Source: an uncultured Acidobacteriota bacterium
GTDB taxonomy: Bacteria; Acidobacteriota; Vicinamibacteria; Vicinamibacterales; 2-12-FULL-66-21
Reading direction: 5' to 3'
Length of the DNA stretch: 64,000 nt
NCBI GenBank assembly: GCA_963776315.1
Contig: CAVZMJ010000010.1
Span: forward strand, 148,896-212,895
Program-made: the position numbers and the translations under genes
In this document: one piece after another, positions 5,836 to 56,220 of the stretch
Layout: every line of letters begins with the position of its first letter
Numbering within the stretch: position 1 is the first letter of the stretch
Notes under the pieces: model-generated
What the model saw: only the letters and a program-made list of their open reading frames with translations
Database searches by the model: none
What the model was told of the DNA's origin: nothing

Positions 5836-7026
5836 ATGCGCATGGTGCGGGACGCTGGACGGGATGTCGTCCGGATCGGTCGCGGTCGGGCCACGCAGTA
5901 TGCGTTGCGTCAACAGTGGCCCAATCTCGACAGTTCGCGCTTTCCGTTGTTTCGAATCACTGACACCGGCGCGGCAGTATCGGCAGGCGAACTCACTACG
6001 CTTGCGACGCGCCAGTCCGTTTGGATGCCCGCCGGCAGAGTCTCAAACGGCCTTCCGATTGAGCTTGTCGACGCTCGACCTTCGGGATTCTTGGGGCGAC
6101 ACTTCGCCGCCACTCATGCCGATCTTCGGCTACCGCCGCGACTGACCGATTGGTCTGATCATCACATCCTGATCGCCATGTCTCGTCGAGGCGAGGACTT
6201 TCCAGGGAACCTCATTGTCGGCGAGGAATCCTTTGCTCGATGGCAAGCGATGGAAGGTGTCGCTGCCACCCACAATGAATACCCAACGCTGGCGAACGCC
6301 ACAATCGCTGGACACCCTCCTGGTTCATCAGCGGGAGGCGAGCGGCCAAAGTTTGGAGTGCTCGTTGACGGACGGCACATGCTCGTTAAGTTTGCTGCGC
6401 GCGGAGGTGCGACCGACGTCGTTGCGCGGCGTTGGTGTGATCTGCTCATCCTGGAGGGAATGGCGCTAGACGTTGTTGGTGCGAGAGGGATTTCGGCCGC
6501 ACGCACCAACATTATCGAAACGCCTTCTCATTGGTTTCTCGAGAGCGAGCGTTTTGATCGTGTGGGAGCACGAGGAAGGCGTGCCGTTTTGAGTCTTGCG
6601 GCGATTCACGACGACCCAGCAGACGCTTGGGCCCGTGCCGCGACGTCGCTCAGAGAGGCGGGCCGTGTGACCGATGCAGATGCGCGACGGCTTCGCTGGC
6701 TTGATGCGTTTGGCGCACTCATCGGAAACACCGATCGGCATCAATACAACATCCTCTTCTTCACCGAAGAGGGCATCCCGCGACTTGCGCCGGCCTTCGA
6801 CCAAGTCTCCATGCTGTATGCGCCAACAGCAGATGGCCAAGTGCCGCCGCGTGTGTTTGCGATACCGAACGTCACATCAGACACTCTCGACGTCTGGGAT
6901 GACGCGCGGGAGGCCGCGCGTCGGTTCTGGGCGCGGGGAAGCGAGGACGCACGTTTGTCAGACGACGTTCGGGCCATTTGTGGAATCAACGCCCGGTTGC
7001 TCGCGGGGAACGGGCACGCCGGCTGA
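5836..7026 (+). CDS. HipA-family kinase toxin, YjjJ-like (HTH-fused type, N-terminus apparently truncated)
   Basis: GNTDRHQYN catalytic loop and SSAGGERPKF. The in-frame upstream codons (open from 5743) read ...TRLGISPATLMRMVRDAG..VVRIGRGRATQYALR, which is the distal part of the fused HTH, but there is no ATG before 5836. Confidence 0.8.
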   Translation: MRMVRDAGRDVVRIGRGRATQYALRQQWPNLDSSRFPLFRITDTGAAVSAGELTTLATRQSVWMPAGRVSNGLPIELVDARPSGFLGRHFAATHADLRLPPRLTDWSDHHILIAMSRRGEDFPGNLIVGEESFARWQAMEGVAATHNEYPTLANATIAGHPPGSSAGGERPKFGVLVDGRHMLVKFAARGGATDVVARRWCDLLILEGMALDVVGARGISAARTNIIETPSHWFLESERFDRVGARGRRAVLSLAAIHDDPADAWARAATSLREAGRVTDADARRLRWLDAFGALIGNTDRHQYNILFFTEEGIPRLAPAFDQVSMLYAPTADGQVPPRVFAIPNVTSDTLDVWDDAREAARRFWARGSEDARLSDDVRAICGINARLLAGNGHAG

Positions 7027-9425: not shown

Positions 9426-9441
9426 GCGGGGACACTCAATC

Positions 9442-9478
9442 GGGACACTCAACCGTGACAGTCACGGTTGAGTGTCCC
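9442..9478. terminator. Perfect 18 bp hairpin between convergent genes (GGGACACTCAA family)
   Basis: gggacactcaaccgtgac / gtcacggttgagtgtccc, with an extra direct copy ggggacactcaa at 9428-9439. There is no T-tract, so it could be a bidirectional terminator or a repeat element. Confidence 0.5.
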
Positions 9479-9596: not shown

Positions 9597-11273
9597 CTAC
9601 TTCCCAGGGCGTTCGGGGACACTCAAGGTTGACTGTCCCGGTTGAGTGTCCCCGAGGGCGCGCAAGACCGCCGGGTCGAGGGAATAGACGTCCTTGGCGA
9701 AGCGCAGATCGCCGGCGGCGCCGACCGAGACGGTCCAGTAGACGATGAGGACCGGTAGCGGCGTCTTGAGGAAGACAGTTTGCGACTGCGCGGAGTCGAC
9801 GGCTTCCTGAATGCGTGTCGCGTTCCAGTTGTCCTGTCCATCCAGCAACACGGCGGCCAGGTCGAGCGGCTGCTCGACGCGGATGCAGCCCGAGCTGAAG
9901 GTGCGCTGATCGGTCGCGAACAGCTCCCGGCTCGGCGTGTCGTGCAGAAAGATCGAGTACTGGTTGGGGAAGATGAACTTGACCCGCCCGAGCGCGTTGT
10001 CGGGTCCCGGTGGCTGACGGAGGGTGTAGCGGAAGTTGCCGGGCGTCGCGCTCTGCCAGTCGATCGACGCCGGATCCACGGCGCGCCCCTGTTGATCGAG
10101 AATCGTCAGACGCTTCTTTGCGATGGTGTTCTGCCCCTTGCGCATGCCGGCGAGCACGTCCTGCGCGAGGATCGTCGGCGGCACGGTCCAGTCGGGATTG
10201 AGCACCAGATACTTCATGTCGGCGCGGAACATCGGCGTTTGCCGCGCCTCGCGTCCGATCTGGGTCCGCCCTTCCCAGACGTTCTTGCGATCGCGGATGA
10301 GGTAAACCTTGAACGCGGGCAGGTTGACGAGCACGAACGAGTCGCTCAACCCCGAGACGATCCACCGCGCGCGCTCGAGGTTCACCCGGAGCTGCTGCAC
10401 CCGCACCTCGGCGCTGACGTTCATGGCATCGATCGTCGCCTTCCCGATGACCCCGTCGTCTGTGAGCCGATGATGGACCTGGAAGTCCTTGACGGCTGAC
10501 TCGAGCGCGGCGTCGTAGGCCGTGTCGTCGCCCGATGCCGCGCCCGCGAGCTCGCCGGTGACGCGGAGGCGCTTCCTGATCGCGCCGAGGCGCGGATCCG
10601 TCGCGCCAGGCTTGATCGCCGCCCCGGCCGCGACGGCCGGCCATCCTCCCGAACCGGCGACCGTGCGCATCCGTGCCAGCGCCTCCTTCAGACCGGTATA
10701 GATGAAGTGCGTCGGCTTCTGTGCTTCGATCCCGGTGTCGAGTGCCGGCGCCCGTGCGAGCTCGTCGAGGGCGACATCGAGTGCGGGCGCACCGATACGC
10801 GGGTCGACGTTCCAGCGCTTGTCGAGCGATGAGGGTCGCACGCGCCCGTACCGCACATCGTCGACGAGGACCGCGGCGGCGTCGGCGATGAGCACCTGGA
10901 GGTCGCCCGCGATCTCCGGTGACGGGGCCTTCGTGTAGGCGTCGAGTCCGGCCGTGATGGCGTCCAGGTGATAGTCAGCAGGCGTGAGGCCATCCTGCTC
11001 GACGTTGCGAACGGCCGCGAGCATCTGCTGCGCGCCGCCCGGAAGACGCCAGGCCGGCGCGAACGCGCGCGCTTCGAAGAATCGCGCGACCGCGTCGGGC
11101 TGGATCAGGCGAGTGCCGCGAACGCCCATCGCCGGCTGCAGCCTCACTTGCTCCACGCGCAGCCGGATGGTGTTCTCGACCGTCGGCGGCTGCGCGCCGG
11201 CCGGTCCATGTGCAGCCGGGAAGGAAAGAGCCAGGAAAATGAGGGTGAGAGCAAAGCGCCGATGTCTGGGCAT
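9597..11273 (-). CDS. L,D-transpeptidase (YcbB/LdtD-like, PG-binding plus YkuD domain)
   Basis: FLHDTPSRELFATDQRTFSSGCIRV YkuD active site. The start at ATG 11273 (MPRHRRFALTLIFLALSFPAAHG) gives a signal peptide. Confidence 0.85.
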   Translation of the reverse strand: MPRHRRFALTLIFLALSFPAAHGPAGAQPPTVENTIRLRVEQVRLQPAMGVRGTRLIQPDAVARFFEARAFAPAWRLPGGAQQMLAAVRNVEQDGLTPADYHLDAITAGLDAYTKAPSPEIAGDLQVLIADAAAVLVDDVRYGRVRPSSLDKRWNVDPRIGAPALDVALDELARAPALDTGIEAQKPTHFIYTGLKEALARMRTVAGSGGWPAVAAGAAIKPGATDPRLGAIRKRLRVTGELAGAASGDDTAYDAALESAVKDFQVHHRLTDDGVIGKATIDAMNVSAEVRVQQLRVNLERARWIVSGLSDSFVLVNLPAFKVYLIRDRKNVWEGRTQIGREARQTPMFRADMKYLVLNPDWTVPPTILAQDVLAGMRKGQNTIAKKRLTILDQQGRAVDPASIDWQSATPGNFRYTLRQPPGPDNALGRVKFIFPNQYSIFLHDTPSRELFATDQRTFSSGCIRVEQPLDLAAVLLDGQDNWNATRIQEAVDSAQSQTVFLKTPLPVLIVYWTVSVGAAGDLRFAKDVYSLDPAVLRALGDTQPGQSTLSVPERPGK

Positions 11274-17087: not shown

Positions 17088-17232
17088 CGGCTCGCTGCTG
17101 GCTGCTCGCTGCTCGCTGCTCGCTGCTCGCTGCTGCTAATTAGCAACCGCTAGCCGCTAGCCGCCAGCCGCTAACTGCTAGCTGCCAGCTGCTGCTACTT
17201 AGCAACCGCTCGCCGCGAGTCGCGAGCCGCGA
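17088..17232. repeat. Heptamer tandem arrays (GCTGCTC)n followed by (GCTAGCC/GCCAGCC)n
   Basis: Strict 7 nt periodicity. Two direct copies of gctgctaNttagcaaccgct, each containing the palindrome gctaattagc or a variant. Fills the gap between convergent genes. Confidence 0.7.
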
Positions 17233-17233
17233 A

Positions 17234-17809
17234 CTATGCTCTTCCCGCGAACTCGCGCGTCTCCGTGTGCACCTTGACCTTCTCGCCGTCCTTGATGAAA
17301 AGCGGCACACGAATCTGGAGTCCGGTTTCGAGCGTGGCGACTTTGGTGACGCTGCCGCTCGCCGTGTCTCCGCGGGCGCCGGGCTCGGATGACGTAACCG
17401 TCAGCAGGACATGGGGTGGAAACTGAAGGCCGATGGCGTTGCCGTTGTACTTCTGGATCTGCACGAGGACGTTGTCGACGAGGAGGAGCCGGTCGTCGCC
17501 GACCATGGCGGCATTGAGCGAGACGGTTTCAAACGTCTCCTGGTCCATGAAGTGATAGCCGTCGCCCCCCGAATACAGGAACGTTGCGTCTACCGTGGCG
17601 AGATCGGGCTCCTTGAACTTCTCGCCGGCCTTGAAGGTCTTGTCGAACACCGCGCGCGTCAGCAGGTTGCGCATCTTGAGGCGAACGAGCGTCTGCCCTC
17701 CGCGCGCCGTGGGCTTCGAGACTTCGACGTCGATGCAGTGATACGGCGCGTCCTCGAACTCGAAGAACATCTTGCGCTTGATCTCGATTGCTTCAATCAG
17801 GCTGGCCAT
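17234..17809 (-). CDS. yeiP: Elongation factor P-like protein (YeiP/EfpL type)
   Basis: MASLIEAIEIKRKM...VSKPTARGGQTLVRLKMRN...VHTETREFAGRA parallels E. coli YeiP (SPTARGAATLYKMRF ... IHIEERRYMGRAD), recalled from memory. Confidence 0.8.
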   Translation of the reverse strand: MASLIEAIEIKRKMFFEFEDAPYHCIDVEVSKPTARGGQTLVRLKMRNLLTRAVFDKTFKAGEKFKEPDLATVDATFLYSGGDGYHFMDQETFETVSLNAAMVGDDRLLLVDNVLVQIQKYNGNAIGLQFPPHVLLTVTSSEPGARGDTASGSVTKVATLETGLQIRVPLFIKDGEKVKVHTETREFAGRA

Positions 17810-34904: not shown

Positions 34905-35200
34905 GGGGACGCGGATCTCGCGGATCACCGCACGCCCACAGGACGCGGATCACTCCGGGACACGGATTACTACGGGACGCGGATTACGCGGATCACTGCG
35001 GGACACGGTTGCGCGGATCCGCTAGGACGTAGTTCGTCGATCGCCGACGGGGTGTGTTCCAGCAGAGCGGACCCCAATCACAGAGGAAGATTCGCGCAAT
35101 CCGCGTCCTTTGAAAACCGTGATCCGCGACCGCTCCGCAACCGTGTCCGCGAAATCCGCTCCGTGACCTGATTTGAATCCGCGAGAATCCGCGTCCGAGC
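34905..35200. repeat. About 300 bp palindromic element with GGGACGCGGATCAC-type arms
   Basis: Left arm 34905-35015 (gggacgcggatc units) and right arm about 35090-35200 (gatccgcg units) around a loop of about 75 nt. Confidence 0.6.
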
Positions 35201-38926: not shown

Positions 38927-39023
38927 GGCTCAGGGCTCAGGGCTCAGGGCTCAGGCAAAACCTTCGACCACATACTCGAGGGTTCTGGCTTGGCCCTGAG
39001 CCCTGAGCCCTGAGCCCTGAGCC
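38927..39023. repeat. GGGCTCA-heptamer palindromic element
   Basis: (ggctcag)x4-gcaaaacc ... core ttcgaccacatactcgagg ... ggcc-(ctgagcc)x4. Confidence 0.8.
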
Positions 39024-42079: not shown

Positions 42080-42151
42080 GAAGAGCGCCTGGTGAGAGAG
42101 CAGCTTCGCCGGCTATTCTCGAGGCGCTGCGCTCGGAGTAGCGCTGTGGGA

Positions 42152-42248
42152 GGGATCAGGGATCAGGGATCAGGAAGAGCATTCAAGGCTTAGCCCGCTC
42201 GGCTGAGATCTGAACGCTCTTCCCGATCCCTGATCCCCGATCCTTGAA
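42152..42248. repeat. GGGATCA-heptamer palindromic element
   Basis: (gggatca)x3-ggaagagc ... gctcttcc-cgatccctgatccccgatcc. An extra attcaagg/ccttgaat pair lies in the loop and after the right arm. Confidence 0.7.
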
Positions 42249-43499: not shown

Positions 43500-43569
43500 A
43501 TTGTGCTTTCGTGCCTATTGCTCAAGGGTGGGGTCTGACCCCGGTCTGACCCCGGCTCTGACCCCGTCC

Positions 43570-46012: not shown

Positions 46013-46674
46013 TTGTCCACCGTTCAGCACGGGAGATCGCAGGCGCTCTCCGTCGCGGCAGAGGAGCTGGTGCGGGCGGGGCGCCGTTTCGACCAGCGAG
46101 GCTGGGTCCAGGGGACGAGCGGCAACTTCAGCGTCGTCATCGACCGCGATCCGCTGCGGCTGGCGATCACGCCGAGCGCGACGTTCAAGGGCGAGCTCGA
46201 CGCGGACCACATTCTCGAGATGGACGAGCGTGGCACGCCGGTCGGGGGCGGGACGGCGCGTGTGTCGGCTGAAGCGCTCCTGCACGTCGAAATCGTTCGC
46301 GCGCGTGGTGCCGGAGCAGTGCTCCACACCCACTCGATCTGGAGCACGCTCCTCTCCGGGCGCTTCGGAGACGCCGGTGGGTTCTCGATCGAGGGTTACG
46401 AGATGCTCAAGGGACTCGAAGGCGTCGCACGCACGAGCATCGCGAGTGGTTGCCGATCGTCGAGAACGACCAGGACATGGCGCGCCTGTCGGGCGTCGTG
46501 CGCGGCGTGCTCGACCAGCATCCGGATGCGCACGGCTTCCTGCTGCGCCGTCACGGACTCTACACCTGGGGTGCCGATCTGGCGCAGGCCGTCCGGCACG
46601 TGGAGATTCTGGAGTTCCTGATGGAAGTCGTTGGGAGAGATGAGGAGCGCCTGCGGCCCGAGCGCGGCGCGTAG
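46013..46674 (+). pseudogene. mtnB: Methylthioribulose-1-phosphate dehydratase, one frameshift (or indel error)
   Basis: GRRFDQRGWVQGTSGNFS...VLHTHS...YEMLKGLEGV, then the frame of ORF 46450..46674: THEHREWLPIVENDQDMARL...GFLLRRHGLYTWG. Shift near 46425-46432. Confidence 0.75.
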
Positions 46675-47340: not shown

Positions 47341-48195
47341 GTGTCTGCGTCTCTGCACCTGGGCGCCGCGGGCATCGATTTCGTGCTGCTCGACATCGAG
47401 GGCACGACCACGCCGATCACGTTCGTGCACGACGTGCTCTTTCCCTACGCACGCGTCCGCGTGCGCGCGTATCTCGAGGATGCCCACAATTCCGACCCTG
47501 AGGTTCGTCAGATCGTCGAGGACCTGCGTCTCGAGCTTCCAGCTTCCGGCTTCCCGCCGCCAGCAGGAGGCCTGAACCCAGACGTGGGGAGCCGTGAGCT
47601 GGAAGCTGGCAGTGGGAAGCTGGAGTCTGGCACCGCGAAGCTGGGAGCTGGCAGCGGGAAGCCGGAAGCTGACAGCGGGAAGCTCGGCTGGCAGCTGGAA
47701 GCTGACATCGCCAGCTATGTCTATTGGTTGATGGACCGCGATCGCAAGTCCGGTCCGCTCAAAGCGCTGCAGGGGCGCATCTGGGAGCAGGGTTACGCCA
47801 CCGGCGCGCTGAAGGGCGAGGTGTACGCCGACGCGCCAGACGCGTTCGCGCGGTGGACCGCCGCCGGCGTGCGCATCGGCATCTACTCGTCGGGCAGCGT
47901 GCTCGCGCAGAAACTCCTGTTCGCCCACTCGACGGCCGGCGACCTCTCGCGGTTCCTCAGCGGTTACTTCGATACCGCTGTTGGCGCAAAGAGAGAAGCC
48001 GTCAGCTACCGGCGGATCGTCGAGGCGCTCGAGCTCGCGGCGTCACGCGTGCTCTTCGTATCGGATGTCGTCGCCGAGCTCGACGCCGCGCAGGAGGCAG
48101 GCCTTCAGACCATGCTCTGCGTGCGGCCTCCGGCGCGACCGCCCGCAGCGAGCGCGCACCGCATGGTCGAGTCCTTCAACGAGATCGAGGCGTGA
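47341..48195 (+). CDS. mtnC: Enolase-phosphatase E1 (HAD family) with an inserted repeat-encoded segment
   Basis: LLDIEGTTTPITFVHDVLFPYAR, DRDRKSGPLKALQGRIWEQGY, IYSSGSVLAQKLLF, GYFDTAVGAKRE, LFVSD. 284 aa versus about 225-235 aa as I recall for orthologs. Confidence 0.85.
   Translation: MSASLHLGAAGIDFVLLDIEGTTTPITFVHDVLFPYARVRVRAYLEDAHNSDPEVRQIVEDLRLELPASGFPPPAGGLNPDVGSRELEAGSGKLESGTAKLGAGSGKPEADSGKLGWQLEADIASYVYWLMDRDRKSGPLKALQGRIWEQGYATGALKGEVYADAPDAFARWTAAGVRIGIYSSGSVLAQKLLFAHSTAGDLSRFLSGYFDTAVGAKREAVSYRRIVEALELAASRVLFVSDVVAELDAAQEAGLQTMLCVRPPARPPAASAHRMVESFNEIEA
47531..47706. repeat. GCTGGAA-heptamer palindromic element embedded in frame in mtnC
   Basis: Left arm tcgagcttccagcttccggcttcccgccgccagc (47531-47563) is complementary to gctggcagcgggaagccggaagctg..gaagctcg (47647-47687). 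At least 12 consecutive 7 nt units run from 47597. Confidence 0.7.
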
Positions 48196-48234: not shown

Positions 48235-48420
48235 ATGAAGGACCTCGCCCCACAGACGATCGAGCTCGAATCCGAGAAGGTGCAGTTTCTCGAGGAGATG
48301 TCGACCAAGTACGGCCTCGCGGACATCGGCAAAGCCGTGCGATGCCTCGTGAACTACGCCCGCGAGAACCCCGATCGACTAGACGACATCTTCAGCGAGA
48401 TCCGCTGCCTGGACTGTTAG
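48235..48420 (+). CDS. Small conserved-looking protein (61 aa), hypothetical
   Basis: MKDLAPQTIELESEKVQFLEEMSTKYGLADIGKAVRCLVNYARENPDRLDDIFSEIRCLDC. Protein-like composition; no family recognised. Confidence 0.5.
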   Translation: MKDLAPQTIELESEKVQFLEEMSTKYGLADIGKAVRCLVNYARENPDRLDDIFSEIRCLDC

Positions 48421-48429
48421 CCGCTGGGA

Positions 48430-48571
48430 GGGCTCAAAGGGTCAAGGCTCAGGGCTCAAGGCTCAGGCAAAAGCCTTCTGCCCTGATGAAGATCAGTATG
48501 CTCTTCCCTGAGCCCTGAGCCCTGAGCCCTGAGCCCTGAGCCCTGAGCCCTGAGCGCCCTGAGCCTGAGCC
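48430..48571. repeat. GGGCTCA-heptamer palindromic element (long right arm)
   Basis: ggctcaaagggtcaaggctcagggctcaaggctcaggc ... (cctgagc)x7 and more. The right arm runs into the stop codon of the M13 gene. Confidence 0.8.
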
Positions 48572-51436: not shown

Positions 51437-51546
51437 AACCGCAGATCGCACGAGCCACGGACGACACAGAGCGCGAGCTCCTCCGCCTGTCGTCGCCGAC
51501 CATCGAGCGCGGTGCATACGGCTCGCGGATCACGCGGACTGGCCAA

Positions 51547-51630
51547 GACTCACGGGGCGCGGATCACGCGGATGGTTGACTCACGGGACGCGGATTACGC
51601 GGATCACTGACTCACGGGACGCGGATCACG
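51547..51630. repeat. 31 nt tandem repeat (2.7 copies) of gactcacgggRcgcggatYacgcggatNNtt
   Basis: Units at 51547-51577, 51578-51608 and 51609-51630. A single reverse copy lies at about 20350-20380. Confidence 0.7.
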
Positions 51631-55847: not shown

Positions 55848-56132
55848 TCACTGCGCGGCGCGGACGGCGATTACGTGATTCTGCGTGCGATAGAGCAGGG
55901 CGCCCTCTGAGATCGCCGGCGTCGAGAGGACGCTCTCGGTCATGTCGTTCTCGGCCAGCACCTCGAACGCCGGGCCGGCCTTGAGCACGCAGACGTGTCC
56001 CTCCTCGCTCGCGAGGTAGATCTTGCCGTCGGCGGCGATGGGCGACGAAGTGAACGCCGACAAGCCGCCCGCGAGGCGCTGCCAGAATCGCGGATGCGTG
56101 GCATACGGGACGCGGGCGGATCGAAGACAGGC
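55848..56132 (-). pseudogene. C-terminal remnant of a PQQ-like beta-propeller repeat protein
   Basis: The in-frame stretch RVPYATHPRFWQRLAGGLSAFTSSPIAADGKIYLASEEGHVCVLKAGPAFEVLAENDM...ISEGALLYRTQNHVIAVRAAQ opens only inside the palindromic element at 56127. No N-terminal body is present. Confidence 0.6.
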
Positions 56133-56220
56133 TCAAGGCTTTGGGCTCAGGGCTCAGGCAAAACCTTTCGACTACACACTCGAAGATCTTGCTTGAGCCC
56201 TGAGCCTGAGCCCTGAGCCT
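56127..56220. repeat. GGGCTCA-type palindromic element with conserved core
   Basis: acaggctcaaggctttgggctcagggctcaggc aaaacc tttcgactacacactcgaag ... gcttgagccctgagcctgagccctgagcct. Flanked by cgcgggcggatcg and cgatccgcgatccgcg. Confidence 0.8.

Follow-up and report, generated by a model that had tools for sequence, protein, structure and literature searches.

We analysed a 64,000-nt stretch of the genome of an uncultured Acidobacteriota bacterium (contig CAVZMJ010000010.1; 65.8% GC), referred to below as the window. At 47341–48195 on the forward strand it carries mtnC, the gene for acireductone synthase (enolase-phosphatase E1), as an open reading frame (ORF) of 284 amino acids (aa). The reading frame, read from the sequence, is intact. 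Inside it, between residues E65 and D122, lies an in-frame block of heptamer repeats at 47534–47706, composed of a left arm, a spacer and a right arm. An earlier note, made from the sequence alone, had described this block as a palindromic element inserted into a housekeeping gene. For the context of the window, we used crude gene calls filtered by GC content at third codon positions (GC3). The features of the locus are as follows:

47341–48195, forward strand: mtnC (acireductone synthase / enolase-phosphatase E1), assigned by TIGR01691, Pfam HAD PF00702, the 1yns fold, HAD residues and operon
47534–47564, forward strand: left arm, AGCTTCC AGCTTCC GGCTTCC CGCCGCC AGC, encoding (E)LPASGFPPPA, residues 65–75
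47565–47596, forward strand: spacer or hairpin loop, 32 nt of non-repeat sequence, encoding GGLNPDVGSR(E), read directly
47597–47706, forward strand: right arm, 15 GGAAGCT-type units, encoding residues 86–122
47647–47676, forward strand: right-arm mirror of the left arm, pairing with 47535–47564 (27 of 30 positions complementary), also seen in the fold

The mtnC product scored 248.4 bits against the NCBIfam equivalog TIGR01691, for which the curated cutoff is 128.1, and it is also matched by Pfam HAD PF00702. Human E1 (1yns) was its best match in the PDB both by sequence (query residues 10–65 and 119–265) and by fold, with a template modelling (TM) score of 0.87. The invariant HAD residues are all retained, namely DxExT (D18, E20, T22), S183/S184, K217 and D242 together with the other invariant columns. 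Directly upstream lie mtnB (aldolase_II) and mtnD (ARD), and the operon order mtnB-mtnD-mtnC is kept in relatives. By profile, motifs, fold and methionine-salvage context, 47341–48195 is a bona fide mtnC. The TIGR01691 match comes in two stretches and the block falls at about profile position 67; it is preceded by ...EVRQIVEDLR and followed by ADIASYVYWLMDRDRK.

Tandem Repeats Finder detected three copies of AGCTTCC at 47534–47554 and, at 47597–47704, an array with periods of both 7 nt (15.7 copies) and 21 nt (5.2 copies, 77% matches, score 132). In an inverted-repeat search, 47535–47564 matched 47647–47676 at 90% over 30 nt (27/30), and the unit variants AGCTTCC, GGCTTCC and CGCYGCC stand in mirrored order in 47647–47676. 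A match of this quality with the variants in mirrored order indicates that the arms are true inverted copies, rather than a mere pair of arrays built on one unit. The minimum-energy DNA fold (−57.5 kcal/mol, z = −4.9) pairs the left arm with approximately 47647–47687 across a 7-nt bulge, and none of 200 shuffled sequences folded as well. This is the pairing, interrupted by one 7-nt unit, that the earlier note had read by eye, and the ORF, the two repeat searches and the fold together bear out its in-frame palindromic heptamer block. It had counted at least 12 consecutive heptamers from 47597; the array runs to 15 units.

The right arm is laid out as four 21-nt triplets (AGCTGGA AGCTGGC AGCGGGA), an irregular 12-nt piece at 47681–47692, and then AGCTGGA AGCTGAC. 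Compared with 108-nt segments across the 64 kb, it ranks third of 3195 for identity at a lag of 7 nt and second at a lag of 21 nt; at lag 7, identity amounts to 0.63, as opposed to 0.25 in the remainder of mtnC. With at most one mismatch, GGAAGCTGGAAGC occurs four times in the window, always within the mtnC block (0.08 occurrences expected). Together with the repeat searches and the fold, these statistics place the block far beyond chance. Identities within the right arm at lags 7, 14, 21, 28, 35 and 42 are 0.63, 0.56, 0.64, 0.49, 0.49 and 0.62. Since they peak at 21 and 42, the real repeat of this arm is the 21-nt triplet, which encodes EAGSGKL. The 21-nt superperiod was found only in the coding array, the intergenic arrays of the window decaying monotonically with lag. 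At the level of 7 nt the right arm is degenerate, with no three identical units running. A pure (GAAGCTG)n array encodes EAGSWKL in every frame, and its complement encodes QLPASSF. Because a heptamer array yields the same 7-aa peptide in every frame, the block peptide has a period of 7 aa (ELEAGSG KLESGTA KLGAGSG KPEADSG); this period and the length of 284 aa had both been recognised correctly beforehand. A scan of the window at Rfam gathering thresholds gave no matches, and the units of the mtnC block have no G-quadruplex potential.

To place the block among its relatives, 120 homologues with 57–86% identity were compared, the closest of which come from metagenome assemblies of uncultured Acidobacteriota (L and P numbers below are our handles). 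About 75 of the 120 acidobacterial MtnC homologues, down to approximately 65% identity, carry ELPASGF(Q)LPA...AGSGKLEAD or a derivative of it at the same site. The block is therefore old and not recent, and the idea of a discrete, recent colonisation that the word 'inserted' had conveyed is not supported; we also found no transposon features in the block and no evidence that it had transposed. At the DNA level, we compared 15 relatives. Two of them, with proteins of 251–252 aa (L001 and L088), fold into hairpins that are almost perfect (z = −8.2 and −7.2) around a short spacer, about 11 nt long in L001. A further 21 nt are present in the left arm of L083 (hairpin z = −9.4) and in the right arm of L082. 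The closest relative (L081/P0002; 266 aa) also has the spacer of the window, and it carries two right-arm triplets versus the four plus 12 nt found here. In L084 (234 aa) the block has collapsed to CAGCTTC-C-GAAGCTG, and L086 and L087 have right-arm units only. Finally, in L003, L025 and many others the left arm is retained next to a stop-free GCGAGCC array (ASREPR) on the right side, and no hairpin forms (z about 0). The length changes among relatives are thus mostly steps of 7 aa (21 nt), accompanied by collapse, loss of one arm and replacement of the right arm.

Of the 29 two-armed proteins, 10 have a block of 30 aa, 5 one of 37 aa and 3 one of 44 aa, the others being scattered, and the 62 aa of the window are the longest. 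The window allele exceeds the common 251-aa form by about 32 aa and its closest relative by 18 aa, the latter excess corresponding to two extra 21-nt units plus 12 nt. When metagenomes were scanned for exact matches to GGAGGCCTGAACCCAGACGT, the spacer specific to the window, none was obtained, and a second assembly of the long allele was not found. The short forms L084, L086 and L087 resemble internal deletions rather than empty sites, and the right-arm-only forms look secondary because they are nested among two-armed forms in the tree-ordered list. In L001, GCTGA stands on both sides of the block, but it is part of the repeat unit itself. A distant group (P0083, P0103, P0089 and P0120) has the same unit type with a different left junction, after EHARDVA, and P0092 has other 7-aa repeats (PNPEPRI/PSPEPRA) at the same MtnC site. 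Across groups the right junction is constant and consists of ancestral LE[AS]/LD[AS] codons that already hold one GGAAGCT-like unit. The block may thus have been born locally from a seed, with an inverted duplication later on.

The next question was whether the block adds to the enzyme or replaces part of it. Repeat-free acidobacterial MtnC proteins are about 235–254 aa long and have a native, unrelated loop of approximately 25–42 aa at the position of the block. In L004, P0100, P0068 and others, this segment is of the type EHARD..GE.VP.W....E.L.S, and human E1 also has a long loop here. The distance from LR to WLM is 38 aa both in L001, which has the block, and in the repeat-free L004. These equal spans indicate that the common repeat-bearing form replaces the native loop and adds no length relative to the longer repeat-free forms. 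Only the allele of the window is clearly longer, apparently through tandem amplification of the 21-nt unit. Two assumptions of the earlier note need revision here. Its ortholog length of 225–235 aa is right for gammaproteobacterial MtnC (for example about 225 aa in Pantoea; the TIGR01691 profile has 224 positions) and too low for the repeat-free acidobacterial proteins, and the short linker that it expected in orthologues is in reality the unrelated segment just described. The note had added that a homologous segment of similar length lacking heptamer periodicity in orthologs would speak against an insertion. What we found agrees with this in part: there is a segment without the periodicity, it is unrelated in sequence, and the longer versions of it equal only the common repeat-bearing form.

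We then asked how the block is treated at the protein level. For the pair L001 and L003, the proportions of synonymous (pS) and nonsynonymous (pN) differences are 0.76 and 0.20 over the 13 codons of the left arm, compared with 0.51 and 0.18 in the enzyme core, and other pairs are similar. As pN/pS of the left arm is like that of the core, ELPASGF.LPA has been kept by purifying selection while the periodicity of the DNA decayed. The AlphaFold 2 model of the window MtnC has a mean predicted local distance difference test (pLDDT) score of 89. In it, the cap helix of residues 53–69 ends within the left-arm peptide (ELPAS; mean pLDDT 94 for residues 61–70), and a second helix, residues 113–132, begins in the last right-arm units. 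Residues from about 71 to 112 form a low-confidence region with pLDDT of 46–70, falling below 50 for 90–104. The AlphaFold model of a 252-aa relative (mean pLDDT 91) has the same arrangement with a loop of 14 residues. The middle of the block is thus predicted to be disordered, and the models place the site in a loop that joins the second cap-domain helix to the third and is solvent-exposed and naturally variable in length, in agreement with the surface loop of the cap region that the earlier note had proposed to look for. The proximal ends of the arms are built into the flanking helices and are under purifying selection even where periodicity and hairpin have decayed.

The window contains about ten palindromic heptamer elements, built on GGCTCAG (five), GCTCGCT, AGGGATC, AATGCTG and others. 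The other nine catalogued elements are intergenic or merely abut stop codons, and the mtnC block alone is spanned by an ORF. The intergenic elements mostly adjoin stop codons at the 3′ ends of genes and fold with z down to −14; among them is the AGGGATC/GATCCCT pair at 42151–42247. They have the same architecture as the mtnC block, inverted heptamer arrays around a spacer, as had been noticed before, and units of the type found in the block likewise build intergenic palindromes on other metagenomic contigs from soil. The element nearest to mtnC served as a comparator:

48431–48571, no strand assigned: intergenic GGCTCAG/CTGAGCC palindromic heptamer element, between a 61-aa ORF and the stop codon of a convergent M13 peptidase gene; z = −10

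Relatives carry the same kind of element at this site with differing unit counts, or none. Downstream of mtnC the arms range from about 2 left and 18 right units in L082 to four per arm in L084, and the site is empty in L086 (5965–6005). In L090 both arms have switched to GGCTCTC/GAGAGCC where relatives have GGCTCAG/CTGAGCC, with the variants in mirrored order, which indicates that the arms of GGCTCAG-type elements evolve in concert. The GGCTCAG elements at 38927–39023 and 56130–56220 have a core of about 38 nt in common (GCAAAACCTTTCGACCACAYACTCSAAGATCTTGC). The same core is present in the elements downstream of mtnC in L001 (5996–6079), L082 (about 6018–6192), L083 (6935–7030), L084 (5940–6036) and L090 (6015–6125). 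From these sequences, the GGCTCAG elements form a dispersed, possibly mobile family with expandable heptamer arms, similar to repetitive extragenic palindromes (REPs) or to miniature transposable elements with inverted repeats (MITEs). The mtnC spacer is unrelated to the GGCTCAG-family core and has no core in common with it, and no other AGCTTCC arrays were found in the 64-kb window or in about 150 kb of the relatives' flanks. The units also differ in coding capacity: AGCTTCC and GCGAGCC are stop-free on both strands, which is not the case for GGCTCAG, the commonest unit of the window, or for AGGGATC and AATGCTG.

Outside these genomes, a metagenome scan for GAGCTTCCRGCTTCCGGCTTC gave 36 loci, two of them mtnC. 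Most of the 34 non-mtnC loci are apparently intergenic, and several are short-loop palindromes centred on CCAGCTGG, some of them lying immediately upstream of a start codon. When artificial (EAGSWKL)n/(QLPASSF)n peptides were used to search proteins, 264 matches were obtained. Those listed were nearly all short ORFs lacking Pfam domains, from Pseudomonas solani, Stutzerimonas, Halomonas and others, and several of the array ORFs that we inspected are palindromic; the search says little on the colonisation of coding sequence. The metagenomic loci and the array ORFs together indicate that the AGCTTCC/GGAAGCT palindrome is an ordinary intergenic type in several phyla, and that what is unusual here is its location in an enzyme.

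Many database 'hypothetical proteins' (among P0121–P0240) consist of (EAGSWKL)n or (QLPASSF)n, for example in Pseudomonas solani (P0121), Stutzerimonas stutzeri (P0130) and Halopseudomonas (P0127). These entries translate stop-free GGAAGCT arrays, often followed by the mirror array, and are probably artefacts of annotation. In addition, L091, L114 and L118 have exactly three AGCTTCC/GGCTTCC units (21 nt) in long ORFs of unrelated genes with high GC3, where they encode GSRKPEA or SFRLPAS. Such cases are possibly in-frame heptamer arrays of minimal size in further proteins.

How did such a block come to lie in mtnC? It is old, sits at a fixed site, changes its length in quantised steps and has mirrored arms, a dispensable hairpin, selected ends and a middle that is predicted to be disordered. 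We consider it probable that the block is a coding-embedded example of the paired heptamer simple-sequence repeats that are abundant in this lineage, accommodated in the length-variable cap loop of MtnC. Arrays of this kind would grow and shrink by replication slippage, and the mirror arm would be made or maintained by hairpin-templated strand switching, for which the intergenic case of L090 provides support. In coding sequence, selection would let pass only multiples of 21 nt and units that are stop-free on either strand. The 284-aa allele could have arisen from a form like the 266-aa one whose right arm gained two extra 21-nt units and underwent a 12-nt event. In this view the enzyme tolerates the block as a passenger, the ends of which have been recruited as protein, and the block would not be a device with a function of its own.

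Several points weigh against this explanation. Slippage and template switching are both deduced from patterns. In the hairpin-bearing group, synonymous divergence is lower in the arms than in the core (0.24 vs 0.33), yet the difference is not significant (p about 0.10; 10% of random core samples were as low), so this is a trend only and ongoing homogenisation of the mtnC DNA is not demonstrated. By inspection of L001, L088, L105 and L110 we saw no convincing compensatory changes between the arms, a comparison made without formal pair counting as the repeat alignments are ambiguous; the L-to-P changes in L110 are same-strand and not compensatory. The stop-free filter is weak, as about 73% of GC-weighted heptamers would pass it. 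The block may have originated either by insertion or by birth in situ from the ancestral ...LE[AS]... codons. Lastly, the unit number of the 284-aa allele is taken from the assembly alone, in a region with at least one frameshift nearby.

Birth in situ is central to a different account, in which the block would be a locally arisen in-frame 21-nt minisatellite whose left-arm palindromy is incidental and which has no tie to the intergenic elements. The constant right junction on codons with one GGAAGCT-like unit would suit such an origin, and so would the lineages with only direct right-arm units (L086, L087 and P0089) and the other 7-aa repeats of P0092. We nevertheless regard this account as unlikely, as it leaves the mirrored order of the variant units in the arms (27/30) to chance, and the near-perfect hairpins of relatives (z of −7 to −9) go far beyond what two independent arrays would give. 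The right-arm-only forms, being nested among two-armed ones, look derived, and the 7-nt base period is the signature of the intergenic repeats of the lineage and not of protein-driven repeats.

Recent transposition of a mobile palindromic element, similar to a MITE or a Rickettsia palindromic element (RPE), into the mtnC of this genome appears quite unlikely as well. The same-site presence of the block in about 75 of 120 homologues stands against it, as do the lack of a core in common with the GGCTCAG family, the lack of another AGCTTCC array in the window or in the relatives' flanks, and the fact that no convincing target-site duplication was seen. It is true that the window is full of palindromic heptamer elements and that the GGCTCAG family, with its core at dispersed loci, is polymorphic for filled and empty states at an orthologous site. 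The AGCTTCC-type 21-mer at 34 unrelated metagenomic loci could also be counted in favour of mobility, but these matches are simple arrays that can arise independently and have only the simple unit in common. Dispersed copies with a family consensus, by which RPEs and MITEs are recognised, were not found for the mtnC block.

An assembly artefact, with the long right arm or the whole block mis-assembled from repeat reads, is highly improbable. Related assemblies do contain frameshift errors (P0242, P0243 and L005), mtnB of the window is itself frameshifted near 46420–46430, and no other assembly with at least four right-arm triplets was found. Against this, the same architecture occurs in independent JGI and ENA sample assemblies, and the spacer and two triplets are also present in the closest relative. 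The frame is moreover kept over 176 nt of repeat, which random indel errors would not preserve and which argues against a gross assembly error.

Equally improbable is a selected function of the hairpin or array, either as an mRNA structure by which the mtn operon's translation or stability is controlled or as an on/off switch by 7-nt slippage. Very stable hairpins do occur in several relatives, intergenic elements of the same kind lie for the most part against the 3′ ends of genes, like REP-like stabilisers or terminators, and pure heptamer arrays in coding sequence would frameshift on 7-nt slippage. However, the left-arm peptide persists without the hairpin in L003, L025 and many others, and L084 has lost nearly all of the hairpin, which is therefore dispensable; the coding arrays are degenerate (lag-7 identity 0.63, no run of three identical units), disfavouring frequent 7-nt slippage, and no Rfam matches were obtained. 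Because many lineages have lost the hairpin, we see no sign of a hairpin function in mtnC. The properties of a phase-variable contingency locus were likewise not found, since the tract is degenerate and the only out-of-frame mtnC alleles recovered (L005 and P0242) are shifted well outside the array.

Returning to the paired heptamer repeats of the lineage as the source of the block, a broader idea can be put forward tentatively, although we rather doubt it. New protein segments in free-living soil bacteria may be generated throughout the lineage by hairpins of heptamer arrays, a source that has so far gone unrecognised. These hairpins would repeatedly seed permissive loops of enzymes; their arms would be kept complementary by templated copying, as the mirrored unit variants suggest, and their ends captured by selection as helix extensions. 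At least two different stop-free units, the AGCTTCC type and GCGAGCC, occur at the one MtnC site. If true, this would parallel, in free-living bacteria and by a different mechanism based on slippage, what the Rickettsia palindromic elements do. The mtnC locus offers a clean comparative case of non-coding repeat DNA turning into protein, as it holds at one place the near-perfect hairpin, the frame-preserving expansion by 21 nt, collapse, arm loss or replacement, and the decayed repeat with a selected peptide. Annotators can be misled in both directions, by stop-free arrays called 'hypothetical proteins' in numerous genomes and by real enzymes that carry such arrays. Nothing is overturned by these results, as heptamer repeats inside genes and palindromic elements lying in frame had both been known before from other bacteria.

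Some further features of the region were recorded. The mtnB gene (46013–46674) is split by the frameshift mentioned above: its N-terminal part lies in the frame of 46013 up to ...EGYEMLKGLEGVA, and the remainder (THEHREWLPIVENDQDMARL...HGLYTWG...) in another frame. A sequencing error is more probable here than a pseudogene, because related long-read assemblies are also frameshifted. In relatives, the spacer between mtnB and mtnD contains other heptamer arrays of the AGCTGAA, TCAGCTC and TGAGAGC types (L083 4370–4401, L025 4343–4370, L087 4302–4322 and L085 40–82); no array was detected in this spacer of the window. Directly downstream of mtnC, the 61-aa ORF at 48235–48420 (forward strand) has no match in Pfam or NCBIfam, and an ORF of the same position and length is called in most syntenic relatives (L082–L086, L088 and L090).

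Elsewhere in the window, a compound element at 17088–17236 takes up all of the space between two genes that converge, reaching the stop codon of each. It consists of a GCTCGCT array, a TGCTAATTAGCA centre and CCGCTAG/GCCGCGA arrays, partly duplicated with a period of 59. A different repeat class is present at 51524–51630 and 34941–35019, where tandem units of 31 nt and 17–26 nt are built on CGCGGATCACG/GGGACGCGGATTAC; the repeat at 34941–35019 has an apparent inverted partner about 100 nt away, in GATCCGCG-rich sequence at approximately 35100–35200. Units of 13 nt (GGGACACTCAACC) at 9429–9475 and 9615–9655 form short palindromes flanking a stretch of about 150 nt, and a threefold (GGTCTGACCCC) array lies at 43532–43566.

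Finally, we compared the mtnC block with known repeat systems. Coding minisatellites resemble it in their whole-codon length polymorphism in a disordered loop. The block differs from them in its 7-nt base period, with which only every third slippage step is viable, and in its mirror-image partner and long hairpin. REP, BIME, REPIN and MITE sequences are likewise short GC-rich hairpin repeats lying between genes, often where convergent genes meet at their 3′ ends, and the GGCTCAG elements of the window are similar to them. However, REPs and MITEs have a fixed sequence and not expandable heptamer arrays, and MITEs in addition have terminal inverted repeats and target duplications. The short tandemly repeated repetitive (STRR) heptamers of cyanobacteria and the TAACTGA repeats of Beggiatoaceae are abundant intergenic tandem heptamers with lineage-specific units (PMC4679880). 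They are described as essentially direct repeats, with one indirect repeat in 169 sets, and we found no report there of an in-frame location of STRR or TAACTGA heptamers within enzymes.

The earlier note had likened the block to the Rickettsia palindromic elements. These are dispersed families of about 150 bp, each conserved in sequence and in the peptide that it encodes, and they occupy 44 sites in unrelated genes (PMC10969869). In both cases, palindromic repeat DNA lies in frame in housekeeping genes at positions compatible with the fold, adding a peptide without destroying the enzyme. The mtnC block has instead 7-nt units, no family-specific core, a single gene of the window as its site and variation in unit number, and there is no sequence relationship. 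The hosts differ as well, RPEs residing in reduced intracellular genomes and the mtnC block in a free-living soil bacterium. The likeness is therefore best taken as an analogy of outcome and not as membership of the family.

Heptamer repeats with GGGAATC units in Xanthomonas, and those of Nostoc, were described by Rehm et al. (2015; PMC4692102), who proposed polymerase slippage and credited the over-representation of heptamers to Mrazek et al. (2007). In X. campestris, paired convergent arrays with a potential stem-loop occur at 70 of 186 sites, and 7–11% of the repeats in Xanthomonas and about 32% in Nostoc overlap ORFs (PMC4692102). These systems have tandem 7-nt units, a nearby reverse-complement array and variable unit numbers, mostly in intergenic positions near gene ends. 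The AGGGATC/GATCCCT pair of the window adds to the likeness. The mtnC block matches them in its 7-nt array, reverse-complement partner and variation in unit number, and departs from them in not being intergenic. They belong to another phylum and use other units, and none described there is, like the mtnC block, a complete pair lying in frame in a conserved enzyme, clade-wide, changing mostly in 21-nt steps and forming part of helices. The paired convergent GGGAATC repeats of Xanthomonas are the nearest described phenomenon.

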